Positions 6,839 through 47,137 of a stretch of DNA of 64,000 nucleotides are shown in pieces (the first letter of the stretch is position 1; every line of letters begins with the position of its first letter). The notes below the pieces were generated by a model, which made no database searches, was not told the DNA's origin, and worked only from the letters and a program-made list of their open reading frames with translations. The position numbers were made by a program, and so were the translations under genes. Source of the stretch: Paracoccaceae bacterium (GTDB lineage Bacteria; Pseudomonadota; Alphaproteobacteria; Rhodobacterales; Rhodobacteraceae); the NCBI GenBank assembly GCA_041397345.1, contig JAWKWU010000008.1, positions 8,704-72,703 on the forward strand, read 5' to 3'.

Positions 6839-6979
6839 CTAATGGCCGACGATGCCGACGCGGGCGGTGCCGGTCAGGGTCAGGCCGGGCTGCGCCGCTG
6901 CCTTGGCGGGGGGCTTTGGCGGGCCGTCGGCCCCGCAGGCGGCCAGAAGCAGGGCAGACAGGATCAAGAGGCTGCGCAT
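6839..6979 (-). CDS. Small lipoprotein (46 aa), not in the ORF track
   Basis: MRSLLILSALLLAA-CGADGPPKPPAKAAAQPGLTLTGTARVGIVGH; lipobox LAAC; downstream of argH. Confidence 0.75.
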   Translation of the reverse strand: MRSLLILSALLLAACGADGPPKPPAKAAAQPGLTLTGTARVGIVGH

Positions 6980-7244: not shown

Positions 7245-8648
7245 TCACTTCAACAGACTATGCCAGCGCGCAACCTGCGCGCGCACCTGGGCCGGCGAAG
7301 TTCCGCCGTAAGACAGGCGGGATCGCACCGAATTCTCGACGCCAAGCACCGAAAACACCTGATCGGTGATGCCCGGATGCACCGCGGTCATGTCGGACAG
7401 GTCCAGGTCGGGCAGGTCGCAGCCCTTTCGCTCGGCCAGCGCCACCAGCGTGCCGGTGACGTGGTGCGCCTCGCGGAAGGGCAGGCCGGCCTCGCGCACC
7501 AGCCAGTCGGCCAGGTCGGTCGCGGTGGAAAAGCCCGAGGCGGCGGCGGCCTGCAGCACCTGGCGGTTGGCGGTCATGTCGCCCACCATGCCGGTCATCG
7601 CCGCCAGACCCAGCATCAGGTTGTCGGCGGCGTCGAAGACCTGTTCCTTGTCTTCCTGCATGTCCTTGGAATAGGTCAGCGCCAGCCCCTTCATCACGGT
7701 GAACAGCGCCACCGTCGCGCCCAGGATCCGGCCCAGCTTGGACCGCAGCAGTTCGGCCGCGTCGGGGTTCTTCTTTTGCGGCATGATCGAGCTGCCGGTG
7801 GTCCATTTGTCGGACAGCCGGACAAAGCGGAACTGCGCGCTGGACCAGATCACCAGCTCTTCGGCAAAGCGCGACAGGTGCATGGCGCAGATCGAGGCGG
7901 CGGCCAGGAATTCCAGCGCGAAATCGCGGTCGCTGACGCTGTCCAGGCTGTTGGCCGTGGGCCGGTCGAAGCCCAGCGCCGTTGCGGTCATGTGCCGGTC
8001 GATCGGAAACCCGGTTCCGGCCAGCGCGGCGGCGCCCAGCGGGCATTCGTTCATCCGGCGGCGGGCATCCTCAAAGCGCGAGCGGTCGCGGGCGAACATC
8101 TCGACATAGGCCATCATGTGATGGCCCCATGTCACCGGCTGCGCGGTCTGCAGATGGGTAAAGCCCGGCATGACCCAATCGGCCCCGGCCTCGGCCTGGG
8201 CGACAAAGGCGCGCATCAGCCCGGTCAGGCCGGCGATGGCCTGGTCGCACTGATCGCGGACCCAGAGCCGGAAATCGACCGCCACCTGGTCATTGCGGCT
8301 GCGCCCGGTGTGCAGCCGCTTGCCGGGTTCGCCGATGATCTCGGTCAGGCGGGATTCCACGTTCAGGTGAATGTCTTCCAGCTCGACCTTGAACTGGAAG
8401 GTGCCGGCCTCGATCTCTGACAAGACCGTGAGCAGGCCTTCCCCGATGGCCTGCGCATCGCTATCGGTAAGGATGCCCGTCGCCGCCAACATCGCGGCAT
8501 GGGCGCGCGAGCCCGCGATGTCCTGTGCGTAGAGCCGTTTGTCGAAACCGATCGAGGCGTTGATCGCCTGCATGATCGCGTCCGGCCCTTCGGCGAAACG
8601 CCCGCCCCACATCTGGTTGGCGGCCTGGGAATTGGGGTCTGCGGTCAT
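7245..8648 (-). CDS. argH: Argininosuccinate lyase
   Basis: [35 protein letters not shown]. Confidence 0.97.
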
Positions 8649-8678
8649 GGGCTGCGGCCTTCGGGAAAGGGAAAGACA

Positions 8679-9215
8679 GTGCGGAAACTTCTGGCGGTTC
8701 TCTACACGGCCCTTGCGCTTGGTGCAAACCCGGCGCTGGCCGAGGTTTCCGCGCTTTTGACCGGCGACATGGCCAAGCTGACGTTGACCGACCCGCAGCC
8801 CTTGCCCGAAGCGGCGCTGCTGACGATGGAGGATGCCGAAGTCACCCTGGCCCAGCATCGCGGCAAGTGGATGGTGGTGAATTTCTGGGCCACCTGGTGC
8901 GCGCCCTGCCGGTCGGAAATGCCGGCGCTGGACCGGTTGCAGGCGGCGATGCCCGATATCGTGGTGGTGCCGGTGGCGACGGGCCGCAACGCCCCCGAGA
9001 CGATCGCGCGGTTCTGGGACGAGGCGGCGATTGCCCACCTGACCACGCTGCGCGACCCGAAATCGGTGATGAGCCGGCAAATGGGCATCGCGGGCCTGCC
9101 GGTCACGGTGATCGTCAACCCCGAGGGGCAAGAGGTGGGCCGGCTGATCGGCGATGCCGCATGGGACGGCCCCGAGGCGATGGCGGTGCTGCGCGCGCTG
9201 ATGGCCGGGGGCTGA
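8679..9215 (+). CDS. tlpA: TlpA-family thiol:disulfide reductase
   Basis: GTG start with signal/anchor; [18 protein letters not shown]; GLPVT; divergent from argH. Confidence 0.88.
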
Positions 9216-9308
9216 CGGCGGGGCGGCAGAGCGGGCGCGTTGCCGCAGGCCGGGGCATCTGCTAGGGTTCGGCATCGTTTCAGCACCTGTCCGATTGGTG
9301 GTTTCGCC

Positions 9309-9914
9309 ATGCCGCATTTGTCCCGCCGCGCCCTTCTTGCCGCTCCGGCCGTTCTGGCCCTGTCATCGCTGCCGGCCGCCGCAGCCGGCCCCATAGGCCA
9401 GACCCGGTCGCTGCGCGGCAGTGGCAAGCTGGTGCATGACGGCCGCCAGTCGCCGCTGTCGGTGGGCATGGTCCTGAACGAGGGCGACACCGTCCGCATC
9501 GGCGCCGGGGCGATTGCGGCGCTGTTCCTGCATACCGAGACCCTGATTCACATGGGCCCCGAGACGCAGGTCACGCTGGCGCGGTATCTGGCCGAGGCGG
9601 GCGGCACCATCACCATCGGCGGCGCGCTGGTGTTCGACCGCCCCGAGGCGGCGCCAAAGGTCGACCTGACGTTCCAGAGCGCATTCGGCGAGATCGGCGT
9701 GCGCGGCACCCGGTTCTTCTTTGGCCCGTCAAAGGGCAAGGTCGCGGTCTTTGTCGACCGGGGCCGGGTGACGGTGTCGAATGCCGGGGTGTCGCGCACC
9801 TTGCGCGGTGGCGACGGCGTGGACCTGGCCCGGGGCCAGCCGCCGTCGGAGGTGTCGCAGTGGAAGGCGCCGCGGATCGAGGCGGCCTTTGCGCTGGTCG
9901 GGCTGAAGCGCTAG
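9309..9914 (+). CDS. FecR-domain periplasmic protein with Tat-like signal
   Basis: [11 protein letters not shown] twin-arginine leader; [16 protein letters not shown] and VDRGRVTV motifs typical of FecR domains. Confidence 0.8.
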
Positions 9915-9978
9915 CCAAGGGCCTTTACGGCGGCGGTGCGGTCGCGCAACCTTGGGCAGGAACCAGGATCCCAGCAAG

Positions 9979-10671
9979 ATGACCGGTCGCGCCTTCTGGA
10001 AATCGTTTCGCATGTTCGCGCCGCTGCCCCCCGAGGTGCTGGAGGCGCTGGCCGCCGCTGCGCAGCCCCGGCGCTGGGCCGCGGGCGAGGCGCTGTTCCA
10101 GCGCGGCGATGACGGCGACTGGCTGCTGGCGCTGGAAACCGGGCGGATCCGGATCAGCCTGACCACGGTTGCGGGCCGCGACCTGGTGCTGCGGCAGGTC
10201 GGTCCGGGCGAGATGCTGGGCGAACTGGCGCTGTTCGATGCCGAACCGCGATCGGCCGACGCAACCGCGGCCGAGCCTGTCCAGGGCCATGTGCTGACCC
10301 GCGCGGCCTTTCGCGCCATCGCGGAGCGGCACCCGGCGCTGAACCAGGCGGCGCTGGCGCATCTGTCGGCGATGCTGCGCGATACCACCGAGCAACTGGA
10401 ATCGATCGCGCTCTACCAGTTGCGGGCGCGGGTGGCGCGGTTCTTCCTGTTCACGCTGACCCAGCTGAACGGCGAGGATATTCCCGACGGCGCGGCGCTG
10501 CGGCTGGCGGTCAGCCAGGGCGAACTGGCGGCGATGCTGGGGGCCAGCCGGCCCAAGGTGAACCGGGTGTTGCAGGAGTTTCGTGACGAGGGCGTTCTGG
10601 CCGACGATGGCGCCGGGGTCTGGCGCTGTGCTGTCGGCGCGCTGCGGGCCGAGGCGGCGGCGGATGACTGA
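9979..10671 (+). CDS. Crp/Fnr family cNMP-binding regulator (Clr-like)
   Basis: cNMP cassette GELALFDAEPRSADA; HTH SQGELAAMLGASRPKVNRVL; no Fnr cysteine cluster. Confidence 0.9.
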   Translation: MTGRAFWKSFRMFAPLPPEVLEALAAAAQPRRWAAGEALFQRGDDGDWLLALETGRIRISLTTVAGRDLVLRQVGPGEMLGELALFDAEPRSADATAAEPVQGHVLTRAAFRAIAERHPALNQAALAHLSAMLRDTTEQLESIALYQLRARVARFFLFTLTQLNGEDIPDGAALRLAVSQGELAAMLGASRPKVNRVLQEFRDEGVLADDGAGVWRCAVGALRAEAAADD

Positions 10672-12505
10672 TCGCCCGCGTCGCCCGAGCGGCCGGCGCC
10701 TGCGCGCGGGCGGGGCGGTGCTGTTGCTGTCGGTGCTGGCGGCGCTGGTGATCTGGGCGTCGCCGGCCGGGCTGGACGACTGGCGGGACCGGGTGTTCGA
10801 CCGGCTGATCCTTGCCTTGCCCGGCCCTGCAAAGGCCGAGACGGGGGTGGTCGTCGTCGATATCGGCGCGCTGGATGAGGCGGGGCGCCCCTGGGACCGC
10901 GCCGCCTCGGCCCGGCTGGCGGCGGCGATTGCCGGGGCGCGGCCCGCCGCCGTGGGGTGGGATATCGTCTTTGCCGGCAATTGCGGCGATGCGCCGGCCA
11001 ACCGGGCGCTGGCTGCGGCGATGGCGCAGGCGCCGACCGTGCTGGGGATGCTGTTGTCCCCCGTCTCCAGCGCGCCACCAAGGCCGCTGCCGGATCTGGC
11101 GCTGGCGGCGGGGGTGCAACCCGGTCTCTGGGCCGCCCCCGGTGCCGAGGCGCCCTGTCCTGCCCTTGCCGAGGCGGCCGGGGCGCTGGCCTCGCTGTCG
11201 TTGCCGGGGGATGCGACGGCGCGGGTCAGGGCGGTGCCGGCGGCAGTCGTGGTGGCGGGCGCGGCCTATCCGTCGCTGCCGGTTGCGGTGCTGCGGCTGG
11301 CCGGAGCGCTGCCGAACCCGCTGATCGCGCCGGGCGCGGGCGGGGGTGTCCTGCATCTGGGGGCGGCCAGCTACCCGTTGGGAGAGGCCGCCACCCTGCG
11401 GTTCCGCCCGACGCCGGCGCAGGCGCGCCGGGACCGCACGCTGGATGCGGTGGCGGTGCTGACCGGCGAGGGGGGAGAGCGGTTGCGGGGCGCGGTGGTC
11501 CTGGTCGGGTCGTCCTTGCCGCAGCGGGGGGGATTGCGGCCGACGGTGACCGATCCGCTGTATCCCTCGGTGCAGATTGCCGCGGACCTGCTGCGCGACC
11601 TGCAAGCCGGGCGGGTGCCGTGGCGGCCCGATGCCGCCGCCGGGGCCGAGGCGCTGGCGCTGGTGGCGGGCGGGGTTCTGGCGGCGGCGATGGTCGTGGC
11701 GCTGTCACCCCTGCGGGCGCTGGCAGGGGGCCTGGGGCTGGCCCTGCTGTGGTTCGGCGGGGCGGGGGTGGTTCATGCGGCGACCGGGCGGCTGATCGAT
11801 CCGGTCTTGCCGGCGCTGGCGCTGCTGGTGGCGGCGACGGCGGGTGTCCTGGGGCAGGCTGCGGCCAGCCATCGCGCGCTGCGCGCCCTGCGCGGCCGCC
11901 TGGGCCAGCTGTTGCCGGAACCGGTCGTCGCGCGGCTGGCGGATGACCCCGGCCTGCTGCGCCTTGGTGGCGAGCGGCGGCAGGTGACGGCGCTGTTCAC
12001 CGATCTGGAAGGGTTTTCCGCCCTGGCCAACAGCCTGCCGCCCGAGGTGCTGATCGAGCGGCTGGACCGCTATTTCGCGGTGGTTTCGGCGGTGATCCTG
12101 CGGCATGGCGGCATGATCGACAAGATCGTGGGCGACGCGGTCCATGCGCTGTTCAACGCGCCCCTGGACCAGCCGGACCATGTCGAGGCGGCGCTGGCGG
12201 CCGCCGCCGCGATCCAGGCCGAGACCGGAACCTTGCGCGCGGTGCTGGGGCTGGGCCGCACCCGCATCGGCATAGAGACCGGGCCGGCGATCCTGGGCGA
12301 CGTGGGGTCGGGCGCGCGGATCGACTATACCGCGCATGGGCCGGCGGTGAATCTGGCGGCGCGGCTGCAAGAGGCGGGCAAGGCGCTGGGCCCGGCGGTG
12401 ATCATCGGCCCGGCGGCGGCGGCGGCGGCCCGCAGCCCGCTGCGCCCGCTGGGGCCGGTCGACATCCGGTCTTTCGGGACGGTGGAACTGTTCACGCTGG
12501 CCTGA
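10664..12505 (+). CDS. CHASE2-domain class III adenylate cyclase
   Basis: N-terminal TM, CHASE2 (VVVVDI, PWDR, VGWDIVF), three TMs, cyclase motifs LFTDLEGFS, DKIVGDA, DYTAHGPAVNLAARLQ; start overlaps the Crp stop. Confidence 0.9.
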   Translation: MTDRPRRPSGRRLRAGGAVLLLSVLAALVIWASPAGLDDWRDRVFDRLILALPGPAKAETGVVVVDIGALDEAGRPWDRAASARLAAAIAGARPAAVGWDIVFAGNCGDAPANRALAAAMAQAPTVLGMLLSPVSSAPPRPLPDLALAAGVQPGLWAAPGAEAPCPALAEAAGALASLSLPGDATARVRAVPAAVVVAGAAYPSLPVAVLRLAGALPNPLIAPGAGGGVLHLGAASYPLGEAATLRFRPTPAQARRDRTLDAVAVLTGEGGERLRGAVVLVGSSLPQRGGLRPTVTDPLYPSVQIAADLLRDLQAGRVPWRPDAAAGAEALALVAGGVLAAAMVVALSPLRALAGGLGLALLWFGGAGVVHAATGRLIDPVLPALALLVAATAGVLGQAAASHRALRALRGRLGQLLPEPVVARLADDPGLLRLGGERRQVTALFTDLEGFSALANSLPPEVLIERLDRYFAVVSAVILRHGGMIDKIVGDAVHALFNAPLDQPDHVEAALAAAAAIQAETGTLRAVLGLGRTRIGIETGPAILGDVGSGARIDYTAHGPAVNLAARLQEAGKALGPAVIIGPAAAAAARSPLRPLGPVDIRSFGTVELFTLA

Positions 12506-12509
12506 CGCC

Positions 12510-12525
12510 TGTTACCGGGGGAACA
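12510..12525. promoter_or_regulatory. Clr-type binding box TGTT-N8-AACA
   Basis: TGTTACCGGGGGAACA, about 70 bp upstream of the cupredoxin ATG; possible extended -10 TGtCACAAC at 12544-12552. Confidence 0.7.
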
Positions 12526-12596
12526 GCGGCGGCCGGGCGGGTCTGTCACAACGGGGCATCGGCACAGGATGCCGACCCATTGGACCGGAGCCTGTC

Positions 12597-12908
12597 ATGA
12601 AGACCTTTCTCACCTCTCTTGGCCTTTCCCTGGCCCTTGCCGCGGCGCCGGCATTGGCCAAGGATCATCGCGTCGAGATCAGCGGGATGAAATTCTCGCC
12701 CGCTGCGATCACGGTGGCGCCGGGGGATACCATCACCTTTGCCAACCTCGACGGCGCGCCGCATACCGCCACGGCCAAGGACGGCTCGTTCGATACCGGG
12801 CGCCTGGCGTCGGGGCAAAGCGCGGTCGTCACGATCACCCAGAGCGGGACATTGGCCTATTTCTGCGCCGTGCATCCCGCGATGAAGGGCAAGATCGTCG
12901 CCAAGTGA
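12597..12908 (+). CDS. Periplasmic cupredoxin (amicyanin/plastocyanin-like type 1 copper protein)
   Basis: Sec signal ending ALA; ligands H (APHT) and C-x2-H-x2-M (YFCAVHPAMKG); GGAG RBS. Confidence 0.9.
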   Translation: MKTFLTSLGLSLALAAAPALAKDHRVEISGMKFSPAAITVAPGDTITFANLDGAPHTATAKDGSFDTGRLASGQSAVVTITQSGTLAYFCAVHPAMKGKIVAK

Positions 12909-12983: not shown

Positions 12984-13772
12984 TCACAGGTCGAAACGGG
13001 CAAAGACCGGGGCGTGGTCGCTGGGCTGGTCCCAGCCGCGGGCGGCGCGCAGGACGCGGCTGCCATGGGCGGCAGTGGCGATGTCGGGCGTGGCCCAGAT
13101 GTGGTCCAGGCGGCGGCCCTTGTCCGCGGCGTCCCAGTCGGGGGCCCGATAGCTCCACCAGCTGTAGAGCTGCCCCTGGGGAATGTCCTGCCGGGTCACG
13201 TCCACCCATTTGCCGGCCTCTTGCGCGTCGGCAAGGTGTTCCACCTCGACCGGGGTGTGGCTGACGATCTTCAGCAGCGCCTTGTGGTTCCAGACATCAT
13301 CCTCGCGCGGGGCGATGTTCAGGTCTCCGACCAGGATGGATTTCTGCGGCCGGTCGGCGCGGAAGGCGTCGCGCATCTCGGTCAGGTAATCCAGTTTCTG
13401 GCCGAATTTCACGTTCTCGGCCCGGTCGGGAATGTCGCCGCCGGCGGGCACATAGCAATTGTGGATCGTCACCCCGTTTTCCAGCCGCGCCGCGACGTGG
13501 CGCGCATGGCCCAGGCTGGCGTAGTCGCGGTCGCCGGCATCCTCGATCGGCAGTTTCGACAGGATCGCCACGCCGTTGTAGCCCTTTTGCCCGCGCGCCA
13601 CCATGTAGCGATAGCCCAGCGCGGCAAAGGATTCGGTCGGGATCTTGTCGACCGGGCTCTTGCATTCCTGCAGGCACAGGATGTCGGGCGTCTCTTCGCC
13701 CATCAGGCGCAGGACCAGCGCCTCGCGCAGGCGGACCGAGTTGATGTTCCAGGTGGCAAGCGTGAAGGTCAT
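12984..13772 (-). CDS. xth: Exodeoxyribonuclease III
   Basis: ATWNINSVR, LCLQECK, GYNGVAILS, GDLNIAP, YSWWSYR, RRLDHIW, SDHAPV. Confidence 0.95.
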   Translation of the reverse strand: MTFTLATWNINSVRLREALVLRLMGEETPDILCLQECKSPVDKIPTESFAALGYRYMVARGQKGYNGVAILSKLPIEDAGDRDYASLGHARHVAARLENGVTIHNCYVPAGGDIPDRAENVKFGQKLDYLTEMRDAFRADRPQKSILVGDLNIAPREDDVWNHKALLKIVSHTPVEVEHLADAQEAGKWVDVTRQDIPQGQLYSWWSYRAPDWDAADKGRRLDHIWATPDIATAAHGSRVLRAARGWDQPSDHAPVFARFDL

Positions 13773-13920
13773 GGGGCGCGGCTTTCCTGCATGGGGCAAG
13801 GTCTGGTCCGGGGCCGGGCCTGTGGCCGCCGGACCTGTGATCTGCGGGTTATGGCCAGGGCGGGGCGGCAAGGTCAACGCCCCTTTGCCCTGCGGCACGG
13901 ATCGGGCGGGGGGGACCGGC

Positions 13921-13985
13921 AAAGAGAAGCCCGGAGCAAGATGCGCCGGGCCAAGGTCCAACAGGGAGGTAGGGATTCCATATCA
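13921..13985 (-). ncRNA. Second SorX/SuhB-like sRNA copy (short)
   Basis: CCTCCCTGTTGGAC (14 nt identical to the copy at 15367-15380) followed by hairpin GCCCGG...CCGGGC and TTCTCTTT. Confidence 0.5.
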
Positions 13986-44406: not shown

Positions 44407-45540
44407 ATGCAGACAGAGATCGTCGCCCTCTCCGGCCCCAGCCCCGGAACCGGCCGCTGCCTGACCCGGCATCATTGGGGTCCGCCCGATGCGCGGCCAA
44501 AGGTCTATCTGCAAGGCGGGCTGCACGCCGATGAAATGCCGGGGCCGCTGGCGCTTTTCCATCTGATGCAGGCGCTGGACCGGGCCGAGGCCGAGGGGCG
44601 GATCGCCGGCCACATCGTCGTGGTGCCGCTGGCCAACCCCATCGGCCTGTCGGAATGGCTGCTGCACAAGCCGCTGGGCCGCCGCGACCTGGAAGGGGCG
44701 CATAACTTCAACCGCGGCTATCCCGATCTGGCCCGGCTGGCAGGCGACCGGATAGAAGGCCAGCTTGGCGCCGATCCGGCCGGCAATACCCGGCTGATCC
44801 GCGCCGCCTTTGCCCAGGCGCTGGCCGACCAGGCCCCCCGCACCGAGGTTGACGACCTGCGCCTGCGGTTGATCCAGGGCTCTTGCGACGCAGACCATGT
44901 GCTTGACCTGCATTGCGACCACCGCGCCGTGCTGCATCTTTATGCCTCGACCGCCCAGCCGCAGACCACCGATCTTCTGGCCCGTTGCACCGGCGCGCGG
45001 CTGGCGCTGATCGAGGACACCTCCGGCGGCCACGCCTTTGACGAGGCGCATACCGCCCCCTGGCGGGCGTTGCAGGCCCGGTTCGGCGATCGTTTCCCGA
45101 TCCCGTCGGCCTGCTTCTCGACCACGCTGGAATATCGCGGCCAGCTCGACACCTCGGATGCGCTGGCCGAGCAGGATGCCCAGGGGCTGCTGGCCTTTCT
45201 TGCGGCGACCGGCGCGCTGCGCGATGGCCCGGCACCCGCCCATCCCCCGGCCGAACAGCAGCCGCTGGCCGGCGCGATCGAGGCCACCGCCACCTTTGGC
45301 GGCATCGTAAGCTGGATCACCGCGCCCGGCGACCGTGTCACCGAAGGCCAGGTCCTGGGCCATGTGACCGATGCCGCCACCCGCCACCGGGTGGCGATAC
45401 CCGCCCCCGCCACCGGCCTGCTGTTCCGTCAGGAACTCTGGCCGACCTGCCTGAAAGGGCAGGGCCTTTGCCATGTCGCCGGTGCCGAACCGCGGCGGCA
45501 GGGCGATCTCTGTCTGACTGAAAACAACAACAGGGAGTGA
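44407..45540 (+). CDS. Succinylglutamate desuccinylase/aspartoacylase family (M14) amidohydrolase; true stop probably 45521
   Basis: LHADE, PLANPIG, NFNR, LDLHCD, TLEYRG; one added C gives the terminus GDLLSD*. Confidence 0.88.
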   Translation: MQTEIVALSGPSPGTGRCLTRHHWGPPDARPKVYLQGGLHADEMPGPLALFHLMQALDRAEAEGRIAGHIVVVPLANPIGLSEWLLHKPLGRRDLEGAHNFNRGYPDLARLAGDRIEGQLGADPAGNTRLIRAAFAQALADQAPRTEVDDLRLRLIQGSCDADHVLDLHCDHRAVLHLYASTAQPQTTDLLARCTGARLALIEDTSGGHAFDEAHTAPWRALQARFGDRFPIPSACFSTTLEYRGQLDTSDALAEQDAQGLLAFLAATGALRDGPAPAHPPAEQQPLAGAIEATATFGGIVSWITAPGDRVTEGQVLGHVTDAATRHRVAIPAPATGLLFRQELWPTCLKGQGLCHVAGAEPRRQGDLCLTENNNRE

Positions 45541-45545
45541 CGCCA

Positions 45546-47137
45546 ATGAAGATGCACGCATTCGCCAGATTGCTGACCGGGGCCGCGCTGGTCCTTGGCC
45601 TCGGCACCGCCGCCCTGGCCGACGACACGCTCGATCGCGGCATCGGCTCGAATGGTCCTCGCTGGACCCGCAGGTGAATTTCGACGCCGCCGCCGGCTGG
45701 ATCATGATGGACGCCTACGAAGGCCTGGTCAGCTTTGGCCCCGGCGGCGGCGTCATTCCCGGCGCGGCCGAAGGCTGGGACGTCAGCGAGGATGGCAAGA
45801 TCTATACCTTCCACCTGCGCGACGGGCTGAAATGGTCGAACGGCGATCCGCTGGTGGCGCAGGATTTCGTCAATTCCGTCCTGCGCACGCTGGACCCGAC
45901 GACCGTCAGCGAAAAGGGCTATTACTTCTACTCGGTGGTGCAGATCAAGGGCGCCTCGGACCTGGCCAATGGTGAAACCACCGACCCCGCCGCCCTGGGC
46001 GTCACCGCCCCCGATGACCGCACCGTGGTGATCGAGATGCTGACCCCCGCGCCGCATATCCTTGATATCCTTGGGGCCTTCCAGATCCCGCCGCTGCATT
46101 CGCCCAGCTTCGCCGCCAATGGCGCCGCGGGCTTTGTCGATCCGGCCAAGGTGGTGTCGAACGGCGCCTATGTCATCAAGGAGATCGTGCCGCAAAGCCA
46201 CATCCTGCTGGAGCGGAACCCGAATTACTGGGATGCGGCCAACGTGAAGATTCCGATGGTGAAATACCACGTCACCGAAGATGTCTCGACCGAGTTCAAG
46301 CGGTTCCAGGCCGGCGAAATCGACATCACCTATGACATCCCGGTGAACCAGATCGACGCCGTGCGCGAAACCATGCCCGACCAGGCATTCATCACGCCTT
46401 CGACCGAGAACACCTATTACACCTTCAACCTGACGCATGAACCGTTGCAGGACATCAACGTGCGCATGGCCCTGTCGCTGGCCATCGACCGTGACACGCT
46501 GGAAAACAAGATCGTCAAGGGCGGGGCTATTCCGTCGTTCTCCTATGCCGGTGGCTTTGATCCCACCTATGCCGGTCCGCAGATGCCGGGCGCCGAGCTG
46601 ACCCAGGCCGAACGCGAGGCCAAGGCGCAGGAGCTGATGGCCGCCGCGGGCTATGGCGCCGACAATCCGCTGACCCTGACCATCGTCACCACCGTGGCGG
46701 AAGACCGCACCCGGCTGGCCCAGGGCGTCGCGCTGATGTGGAAAAAGGTGCTGGGGGTCGAGGCCAAGGTCGAACCGATGGAGCGCAAGGCCTGGCTCGA
46801 TGCCTTCTACGCCGGCGGCTGGGACGTGTTCGCCGACAACCTGGTGGGCGACTTTGCCGGGGCCGAGACCTTCCTGGCCTACATGCGCCCCTCGGCCGAG
46901 GCCGGTTACAACTGGGTAAAGCCGGAATATGACGCGCAGATGGACGTGGCCGCGACCATGCCCGACAAGGCCAGCCGCAATGCGGAACTGGCCAAGGCCG
47001 AAAAGATCCTGCTGGACGATGTCATCTTTGCGCCGATCGCGATCGAACCGTCGCGGATGCTGGTCAGCAGCCATGTCCACGGCTGGGTGCCCTCGCCCGC
47101 CGGCTATTACAACACCCAGTTCCTGACACTGGACTGA
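45546..47137 (+). CDS. Opp/Dpp-type peptide ABC transporter substrate-binding protein; frameshift near 45650
   Basis: Signal MKMHAFARLLTGAALVLGLGTAALA; SLDP, YEGLV, YTFHLRDGLKWSNGDP, SNGAY, RNPNYW. Confidence 0.9.

Follow-up and report, generated by a model that had tools for sequence, protein, structure and literature searches.

The locus described here raises the question of what a Crp-type regulator controls when it is encoded side by side with its own receptor-cyclase in a free-living bacterium. It lies in a 64-kb stretch of contig JAWKWU010000008.1 (hereafter the window) from a Paracoccaceae bacterium, whose assembly (GCA_041397345.1) is 3.45 Mb and 80% complete. It is likely that the locus exerts cyclic-nucleotide-activated control of the Clr type over a small exported blue-copper protein, from a palindromic box just past the cyclase gene. 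The parts (fecR, crp, cyclase, box and cupredoxin) are found where a preliminary description of this DNA had placed them, and their domains are confirmed by Pfam. The features are as follows, with lengths in amino acids (aa) and nucleotides (nt).

9309-9914, plus strand: FecR-domain gene, 201 aa, the first gene of a fecR-crp-cya unit (Pfam FecR, E 2.3e-6).
9979-10671, plus strand: crp of the Clr type (cluster G), 230 aa (Pfam cNMP_binding and HTH_Crp_2).
10664-12505, plus strand: CHASE2/class III cyclase gene, 613 aa (Pfam CHASE2, E 1.8e-22; Guanylate_cyc, E 2.4e-11).
12510-12525, no strand assigned: predicted Clr box, TGTTACCGGGGGAACA, starting 5 nt past the cyclase stop.
12546-12551, plus strand: hexamer TCACAA in the -10 place, 20 nt past the box, a weak match.
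12587-12590, plus strand: putative GGAG ribosome-binding site, read from the sequence, 6 nt 5' of the cupredoxin ATG.
12597-12908, plus strand: cupredoxin gene, 103 aa, a predicted secreted type-1 copper protein (Pfam Copper-bind, E 1.1e-12; also Cupredoxin_1).
8499-9215, plus strand: gene for a tlpA-like thiol:disulfide oxidoreductase, upstream of fecR.
12984-13961, convergent to the cupredoxin gene: EEP-family nuclease/phosphatase gene, the downstream neighbour.

The closest match of the window Crp in the Protein Data Bank (PDB) is Clr of Sinorhizobium meliloti (7pza/7pzb, E 2.6e-61). The next matches, mycobacterial and E. coli CRPs, are at 4e-24 or weaker. In Clr, the base-reading residues are Q184, S194, R195, K197, N199, and L152, and the nucleotide pocket consists of G85, E86, R95, S96, T140, and T141 (PMC10127613). 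The alignment to 7pza shows that all 12 of these positions are identical in the window Crp. The six readout positions lie in the motifs SQ...GASRPKVN and LESIALYQL, and the pocket motifs GE...RSADATA and DTT are also kept. The SRPKVN recognition helix of the preliminary description is the same as that of S. meliloti Clr, the cyclic-nucleotide cassette it called intact has all six pocket residues, and the likeness it saw to CyaD1/Clr holds, as the best PDB match is Clr with identical readout residues (PMC10127613). The window Crp is, by alignment, a Clr orthologue, and together with the CHASE2 cyclase it constitutes a Clr/CyaD1-type pair. The cyclase gene starts (ATG at 10664) within the last 8 nt of crp and overlaps its stop (ATGACTGA), which agrees with the translational coupling proposed earlier.

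The cyclase is complete in its catalytic residues. Aligned to the CyaC (1wc1) and Cya2 structures, it has both metal-binding Asp residues, the Lys/Thr pair, and the transition-state Asn and Arg. The substrate-specificity residues are the Lys of DK in GMIDKIVGDA and the Thr of DYTAHG. These are the Lys/Thr residues already pointed out in the preliminary description, and the alignment to CyaC 1wc1 confirms them. The nucleotide made is presumably cAMP (cyclic AMP), possibly also cGMP (cyclic GMP). The cyclase is the sole PF00211 match in the assembly, a status that is provisional at 80% completeness.

Because its DNA-contact residues are identical to those of Clr, the predicted operator of the window Crp is the Clr site, with the core GTNNCNNNNGNNAC and the fuller form HGTYHCNNNNGRWACA. 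This consensus was derived experimentally (PMC5498481, PMC10127613). The box at 12510-12525 agrees with the fuller form at every position, and with the core. It is the only TGTT-N8-AACA site in the window, where 0.11 are expected, so that the perfect box reported before is both real and unique there. A genome-wide scan for TGTT-N8-AACA, which had been suggested as a check, found 15 sites in the assembly, including this one. The scan of the own genome gave 27 strict or relaxed sites, which mostly lie in coding regions or in regions without an open reading frame (ORF) and are not counted as targets.

The box is conserved within the genus. Among all 26 species of the genus, the cassette is present in seven, including that of the window, and absent from 19. 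The box is kept at the 3' side of the cyclase gene in six of the seven cassettes. Four of the six other cassettes have TGTTCC-N4-GGAACA (GGAAAC as the right half in species G222) a few bases past the cyclase stop, and in G205 the box is found ~110 nt past the stop, behind an insert. The cyclases themselves are only 61-69% identical. The spacers align with a mean column identity of 57%, while the block CTGTT.C....G.AACAGC within them remains invariant. In G204, where the cassette is split, a box after tlpA precedes an extra Pro-rich FecR-like gene (L180:436-1446). A separate unit of box and SH3 gene lies on another contig of the same genome, away from the cyclase, beside the EEP gene and behind an alkB-like 2-oxoglutarate-Fe(II) oxygenase gene (L042:2812-3597). 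This arrangement indicates that the box belongs with the downstream gene rather than with the 3' end of cya. No relaxed box, which would be a sign of autoregulation, is present upstream of fecR in the window; G204 has one after tlpA.

The box is also inherited together with the cassette. A second Clr-type box in the own genome, TGTTCCCCCGGGAACT (G000:C10:25728-25743; L127:1501-1516), follows the purB stop and precedes a gene encoding a TPR protein with a signal peptide. All five cassette-bearing genomes of the genus in which the TPR gene is present have this box intact. In three cassette-less genomes, it is missing from two and broken by the loss of 1 nt in the third, G223. The G223 genome still carries, between tlpA and the EEP gene (L174:1456-1611), a fecR remnant of 52 residues that is 56% identical to residues 139-188. 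This implies that the cassette was lost there by deletion. Most cassette-less genomes have tlpA and the EEP gene immediately side by side, so that the 3.7-kb unit as a whole is cleanly polymorphic for presence or absence. Genome-wide, TGTTCC-N4-GGAAC occurs 40 times in the seven cassette-bearing genomes and 46 times in the 19 cassette-less ones, and the full palindrome TGTTCC-N4-GGAACA 10 and 4 times, respectively. A reversed control pattern (49 against 115) shows no such difference. The secreted TPR protein downstream of purB is predicted as a second Clr target in this genome.

Beyond the genus, a scan of species-representative genomes found 80 further loci with a related cyclase across the Alphaproteobacteria, 678 kb in total. 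The cyclase gene is adjoined by a Crp gene in 75 of these loci, by a FecR-domain gene in 72, and by both in 70. They contain 69 strict boxes, against ~2.9 expected at the rate of the own genome, a 23-fold excess. At least one strict box is present in 60 of the 80 loci, and 73 have one if one end base is left free.

The position of the box relative to a putative -10 element is also shared. In four sister species, a hexamer (CTATTT, CTATAC, CTAACC, or CTAATC) is found exactly 20 nt past the box. Rhizobiaceae loci, orthologous to the validated smc02178 promoter, have hexamers of the type CTAGGA/CTAACT at the same 20-nt offset. Such CTAnnn hexamers resemble the alphaproteobacterial -10 consensus, CTATAT. 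This offset would place the box centre near -41, within the range of Clr promoters; the site-to-start distance of Clr-activated promoters is -42 to -76 (PMC10127613). In CRP-type class II promoters, whose spacing the preliminary description had suggested here, the activator site is centred near -41.5 from the start. The window transcript would start near 12559. The centre of the box is 79.5 nt upstream of the cupredoxin ATG. Between cya and the cupredoxin gene, neither an intrinsic terminator nor a consensus sigma-70 promoter was found on the plus strand, the spacer matches no Rfam family, and its RNA fold is unremarkable when set against that of shuffled sequences (z -0.74).

Based on its conservation, its co-inheritance with the cassette, and a geometry common to promoters of the smc02178 type, the box is very probably the operator of the cassette Crp before the cupredoxin gene. 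The payload fits the known Clr regulon, since that regulon is rich in small signal-peptide proteins (PMC10127613).

Several points weigh against this reading. The main weakness is the -10 place of the window, where TCACAA matches the CTAnnn hexamers of the sister species poorly. As no terminator follows cya, read-through could transcribe the cupredoxin gene, whatever the box does. In its left half-site the box has TGTTAC instead of TGTTCC; the variant is permitted by the consensus and occurs before Sel1 genes in Ensifer. In G208 (L038:6837-6990) and G205 (L039:6915-7063), the box is kept with no ORF before the convergent EEP gene, and a conserved box alone is therefore no proof of a productive promoter. 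The genome-level comparisons involve few and related genomes (5 against 3; 7 against 19) and are indicative only. The words "only cyclase" and "small regulon" are provisional, given the 80% completeness of the assembly. Binding and activation at the box, as well as the direction and size of the regulation, are what we infer from these comparisons.

An alternative explanation is a real Clr module whose box in the window is a relic or a minor input, the cupredoxin being expressed mainly by read-through or from an unrelated promoter. The missing terminator, the poor -10-like hexamer, and the two sister species that keep the box without a downstream gene all fit this explanation, which is the main rival. 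It is nevertheless unlikely. The window box is perfect and in agreement with the consensus; a box that has lost its regulator decays, as in G223. Weak core elements are typical of activator-dependent promoters, and in G204, the unit of box and cargo persists away from cya. As for the gene-less boxes, G208 has a leader resembling that of the window, followed by a GC hairpin and TTTT. These boxes could be relics of a deleted payload or could drive a short Clr-dependent RNA.

The palindrome could instead serve the cyclase gene itself, either by forming an RNA hairpin at the 3' end or by binding Crp as a roadblock or for feedback where the operon ends. In the window, the box begins 5 nt past the cyclase stop; in four of the five sisters that keep it there, the distance is a few nt. 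Its half-sites could pair as a stem of 4-6 bp. A U-tract is, however, absent, and the fold is no better than that of the shuffled sequences mentioned above. Elsewhere, the motif lies upstream of genes, between divergent genes, and after unrelated genes: it precedes crp in Gemmobacter and Rhodobacter capsulatus, and it follows tlpA or alkB in G204 and purB in the own genome. The central 4 nt vary freely between half-sites that do not change, as is expected for a protein site. A role in serving cya is thus improbable.

Equally improbable is that the box is bound by the other Crp/Fnr regulator of this genome, so that the cupredoxin would follow another signal. One further, distant paralogue is indeed encoded in the assembly (C5:3919-4506, 35% identical), and the sites of the Crp/Fnr family are all 5-N-5-like palindromes. 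The FNR-type site is TTGAT-N4-ATCAA. The box matches the Clr consensus rather than that type, and its presence tracks the window-type cassette across the genus. Finally, a chance palindrome beside unrelated genes is refuted for practical purposes by the cross-species conservation, the 23-fold excess in cassette loci, and the expectation of 0.11 per window, even though the motif was searched for after the genes were recognised and is not rare in absolute terms at 15 sites per genome.

The preferred reading, Clr-type control of the gene behind the box, leads to the question of whether the cupredoxin is the regular output of the module. The cupredoxin has a Sec-type signal peptide ending in ALA, followed by KD, and a short amicyanin-like C-x2-H-x2-M loop. 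The stretch APH...FCAVHPAM aligns to amicyanin, with the copper ligands His, Cys, His, and Met all in canonical spacing. The corresponding residues of amicyanin we take to be His53, Cys92, His95, and Met98. The protein therefore shares the fold family, the ligand set, and the short loop of amicyanin and other small plastocyanin-like cupredoxins. Identity as amicyanin itself was rejected: the score is 44.5 bits against the cut-off of 110.2 of the NCBIfam equivalog TIGR02657, and there is no adjacent mau context. Unlike amicyanin, it has the cyclase and the EEP-family gene as neighbours, with no methylamine dehydrogenase genes adjacent.

The genes behind the box differ among the seven cassettes of the genus. 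The cupredoxin is found in the window and G213 only (two of the seven), an SH3_3 secreted protein in G216, G222, and G204, and no gene in G208 and G205. No cupredoxin occupies the slot in any of the 80 other cassette loci. A search of the own genome, at 80% completeness, did not find an SH3-type cargo. Cupredoxin homologues were found in 59 of the 401 genera sampled in the family. The 29 family loci examined have no box and no cyclase neighbour; they usually lie by mmsA-like and ybdK-like genes. Likewise, 80 metagenomic cupredoxin loci show neither a box nor a cyclase neighbour. The closest metagenomic cupredoxins are up to 73% identical. Because homologues elsewhere lack both and the content of the slot varies, the cupredoxin is best regarded as specific to this lineage and as recruited recently into an output slot that is itself conserved.

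The preliminary description had taken the cupredoxin as the output of the cassette and had suggested a synteny search for the whole arrangement. The first part of this stands in that the box before the cupredoxin gene is very probably a Crp operator, and the box is indeed conserved across the cassettes. As an output, the cupredoxin is not characteristic of the module: two species of the genus have it behind the box, and the other 80 loci do not. The data are consistent with a single acquisition of the cupredoxin; the cyclase tree does not resolve whether the window and G213 are sisters. The tree is consistent with the SH3 cargo being older in the clade of the window, but does not fix the order of events.

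Outside the genus, further types of cargo are seen. Pararhodobacter and its relatives have the gene order of the window, and the cyclase tree groups them with the genus at 100/100 support. Past their cyclase gene, a box plus a gene encoding a signal-peptide protein of 90-118 aa is repeated in tandem as two or three units; some of these proteins are SH3-like. The tandem boxes have the form TGTTCC-N4-GGAAC followed by C or T (L047:5328-7331, L050:5366-6700, L051:5273-6605, L053:5253-6907). In P. aggregans and two metagenome-assembled genomes, no Crp or FecR gene was seen upstream of the cyclase gene.

In Gemmobacter and R. capsulatus, the box lies between crp and a divergent RTX-repeat gene. R. 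capsulatus has the trio of Crp, CHASE2 cyclase, and FecR-domain protein, a perfect box, TGTTCCGCAGGGAACA, and a divergent RTX-repeat gene of 625 aa (L091:2644-2659, L106:2669-2684). The trios of Pararhodobacter, Gemmobacter, and R. capsulatus are orthologous to that of the window, with cyclases 50-66% identical and the same box, but they contain no cupredoxin. In Rhizobiaceae, the box lies between the FecR gene and a gene for a Sel1-repeat secreted protein, which is the smc02177/smc02178 arrangement. The Sel1-repeat payload of the SMc02178 type was seen only in Rhizobiaceae loci, and the window has the cupredoxin gene in its place, a difference of output rather than of the module.

This variety suggests that the local output of the module is a swappable gene for an exported protein. 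We tentatively propose a wider generalization, which may hold: the trio of Clr, CHASE2 cyclase, and FecR-domain protein, together with a private operator, would be a portable signalling unit of Alphaproteobacteria, whose slot would acquire, exchange, and lose small exported payloads (Sel1, RTX, SH3, TPR, and blue-copper), within a genus on the timescale of species.

The FecR-domain gene belongs to the module as well, given its near-universal linkage to the cyclase gene. The N-terminus of the window protein has SRRALL, a putative Tat (twin-arginine translocation) motif, and the twin arginine is retained in the orthologues. SMc02177 of S. meliloti carries a FecR domain (PMC5498481), and the window protein, predicted to be periplasmic, is its counterpart. 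The proposal of the preliminary description that a periplasmic signal is read via FecR is at odds with S. meliloti, in which Clr targets the FecR-domain protein and signal perception does not require it (PMC5498481).

The following mechanism can be put forward. The membrane CHASE2 receptor-cyclase would make cAMP, possibly cGMP, in response to an envelope or extracellular cue. The cyclic nucleotide would activate the co-translated Clr-type Crp, whose dimer would bind the palindrome TGTTAC-N4-GGAACA just past the cyclase gene. Binding would switch on the weak, activator-dependent promoter of the next gene, probably in a class-II-like manner. The product of that gene, the small Sec-exported blue-copper protein, would then reach the periplasm. 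The box and the gene behind it would form an exchangeable output slot, filled by an SH3-like gene or by nothing in the sister species and by an RTX or Sel1-repeat gene elsewhere.

Some observations concern other sites and genes. A 690-aa ORF on the minus strand (7245-9317), with a seeming overlap with fecR, is composed of argH (~467 aa) and an antisense reading of the plus-strand tlpA-like gene. The corrected gene order is argH on the minus strand, followed by tlpA, fecR, crp, and cya, all on the plus strand. The sequence TGTTCCGTCAGGAACT at 45422-45437 lies in the 3' end of the ORF 44407-45540. A substrate-binding protein with a signal peptide is encoded 108 nt further on (ATG at 45546), in a TetR-controlled cluster. 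This sequence may be a third Clr site or a product of chance. The 16-mer TGTTTCACGTGAAAC(A/T) occurs twice in contig C12 of the own genome, 5.3 kb apart (L129:1508-1523, 6850-6865), one copy being at the start of a HemW/HemN-like radical SAM gene. Its palindrome is longer than the Clr box, and it is probably the site of another regulator.

If the wider generalization proposed above is true, the cupredoxin would become the first target of Clr whose biochemical function can be recognised. Envelope-sensed cAMP signalling would be linked to the handling of redox or copper in the periplasm, in a free-living bacterium that has one cyclase and only a few genes in its regulon. The Clr pathway has so far been studied only in S. 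meliloti, with its ~28 cyclases, a plant-protein signal, and direct targets that are nearly all hypothetical proteins. The organism of the window offers a pared-down version, in which one class III cyclase was found together with one Clr, few candidate operators, and an assayable type 1 copper protein as the target. The comparison further shows that the module is far older than symbiosis and widespread in Rhodobacterales, including the model organism R. capsulatus, which is a tractable model for it. A full-text literature search found no paper describing the module in Rhodobacterales, in line with the remark in the preliminary description that no Clr-type system with this output was known to be described in a non-symbiotic member of the order. 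The value lies in the minimal genetic background and the swappable secreted-protein output rather than in a new mechanism. Two questions become testable in simple hosts: which cues CHASE2 cyclases respond to in the absence of symbiosis, and which role the FecR-domain partner has.

In comparison with known systems, the class II promoters of E. coli CRP show a similar design, in which a dimeric regulator activated by a cyclic nucleotide binds a 16-bp palindrome directly upstream of a weak core promoter. The half-site differs, TGTGA in E. coli against TGTTCC for the Clr type, and Clr is activated by cAMP as well as by cGMP.

The closest known system is that of S. meliloti. Its clr (smc02175)-cyaD1 (smc02176)-smc02177-smc02178 locus is reportedly treated by Tian 2012. 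It is also covered by Zou 2017 (PMC5498481) and Werel 2023 (PMC10127613). There, clr, cyaD1, the FecR-domain gene smc02177, and the periplasmic smc02178, controlled by a Clr box, lie side by side (PMC5498481), and the direct Clr targets are mostly small signal-peptide proteins (PMC10127613). All four parts are already present in S. meliloti; thus, the architecture is known and not new. The two loci share a Crp of cluster G, an adjacent CHASE2 class III cyclase, an adjacent FecR-domain protein, and a TGTT-N8-AACA box before a gene for a signal-peptide protein, and the regulons of both lean to small secreted proteins.

Compared with the Sinorhizobium/Ensifer counterparts, the window cyclase is 41-48% identical and the Crp 44-50%. 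The two loci differ in several respects. The order in the window is fecR-crp-cya-box-cargo on one strand, while in rhizobia it is crp-cya, convergent fecR, box, and cargo. The cargo is a cupredoxin of 103 aa in the window and a Sel1-repeat protein of 286 aa in S. meliloti. The plant uL2/NsrA signal of S. meliloti is not to be assumed in a free-living member of the Rhodobacterales. One class III cyclase is found in the 80%-complete assembly of the window, whereas S. meliloti has 28 or more.

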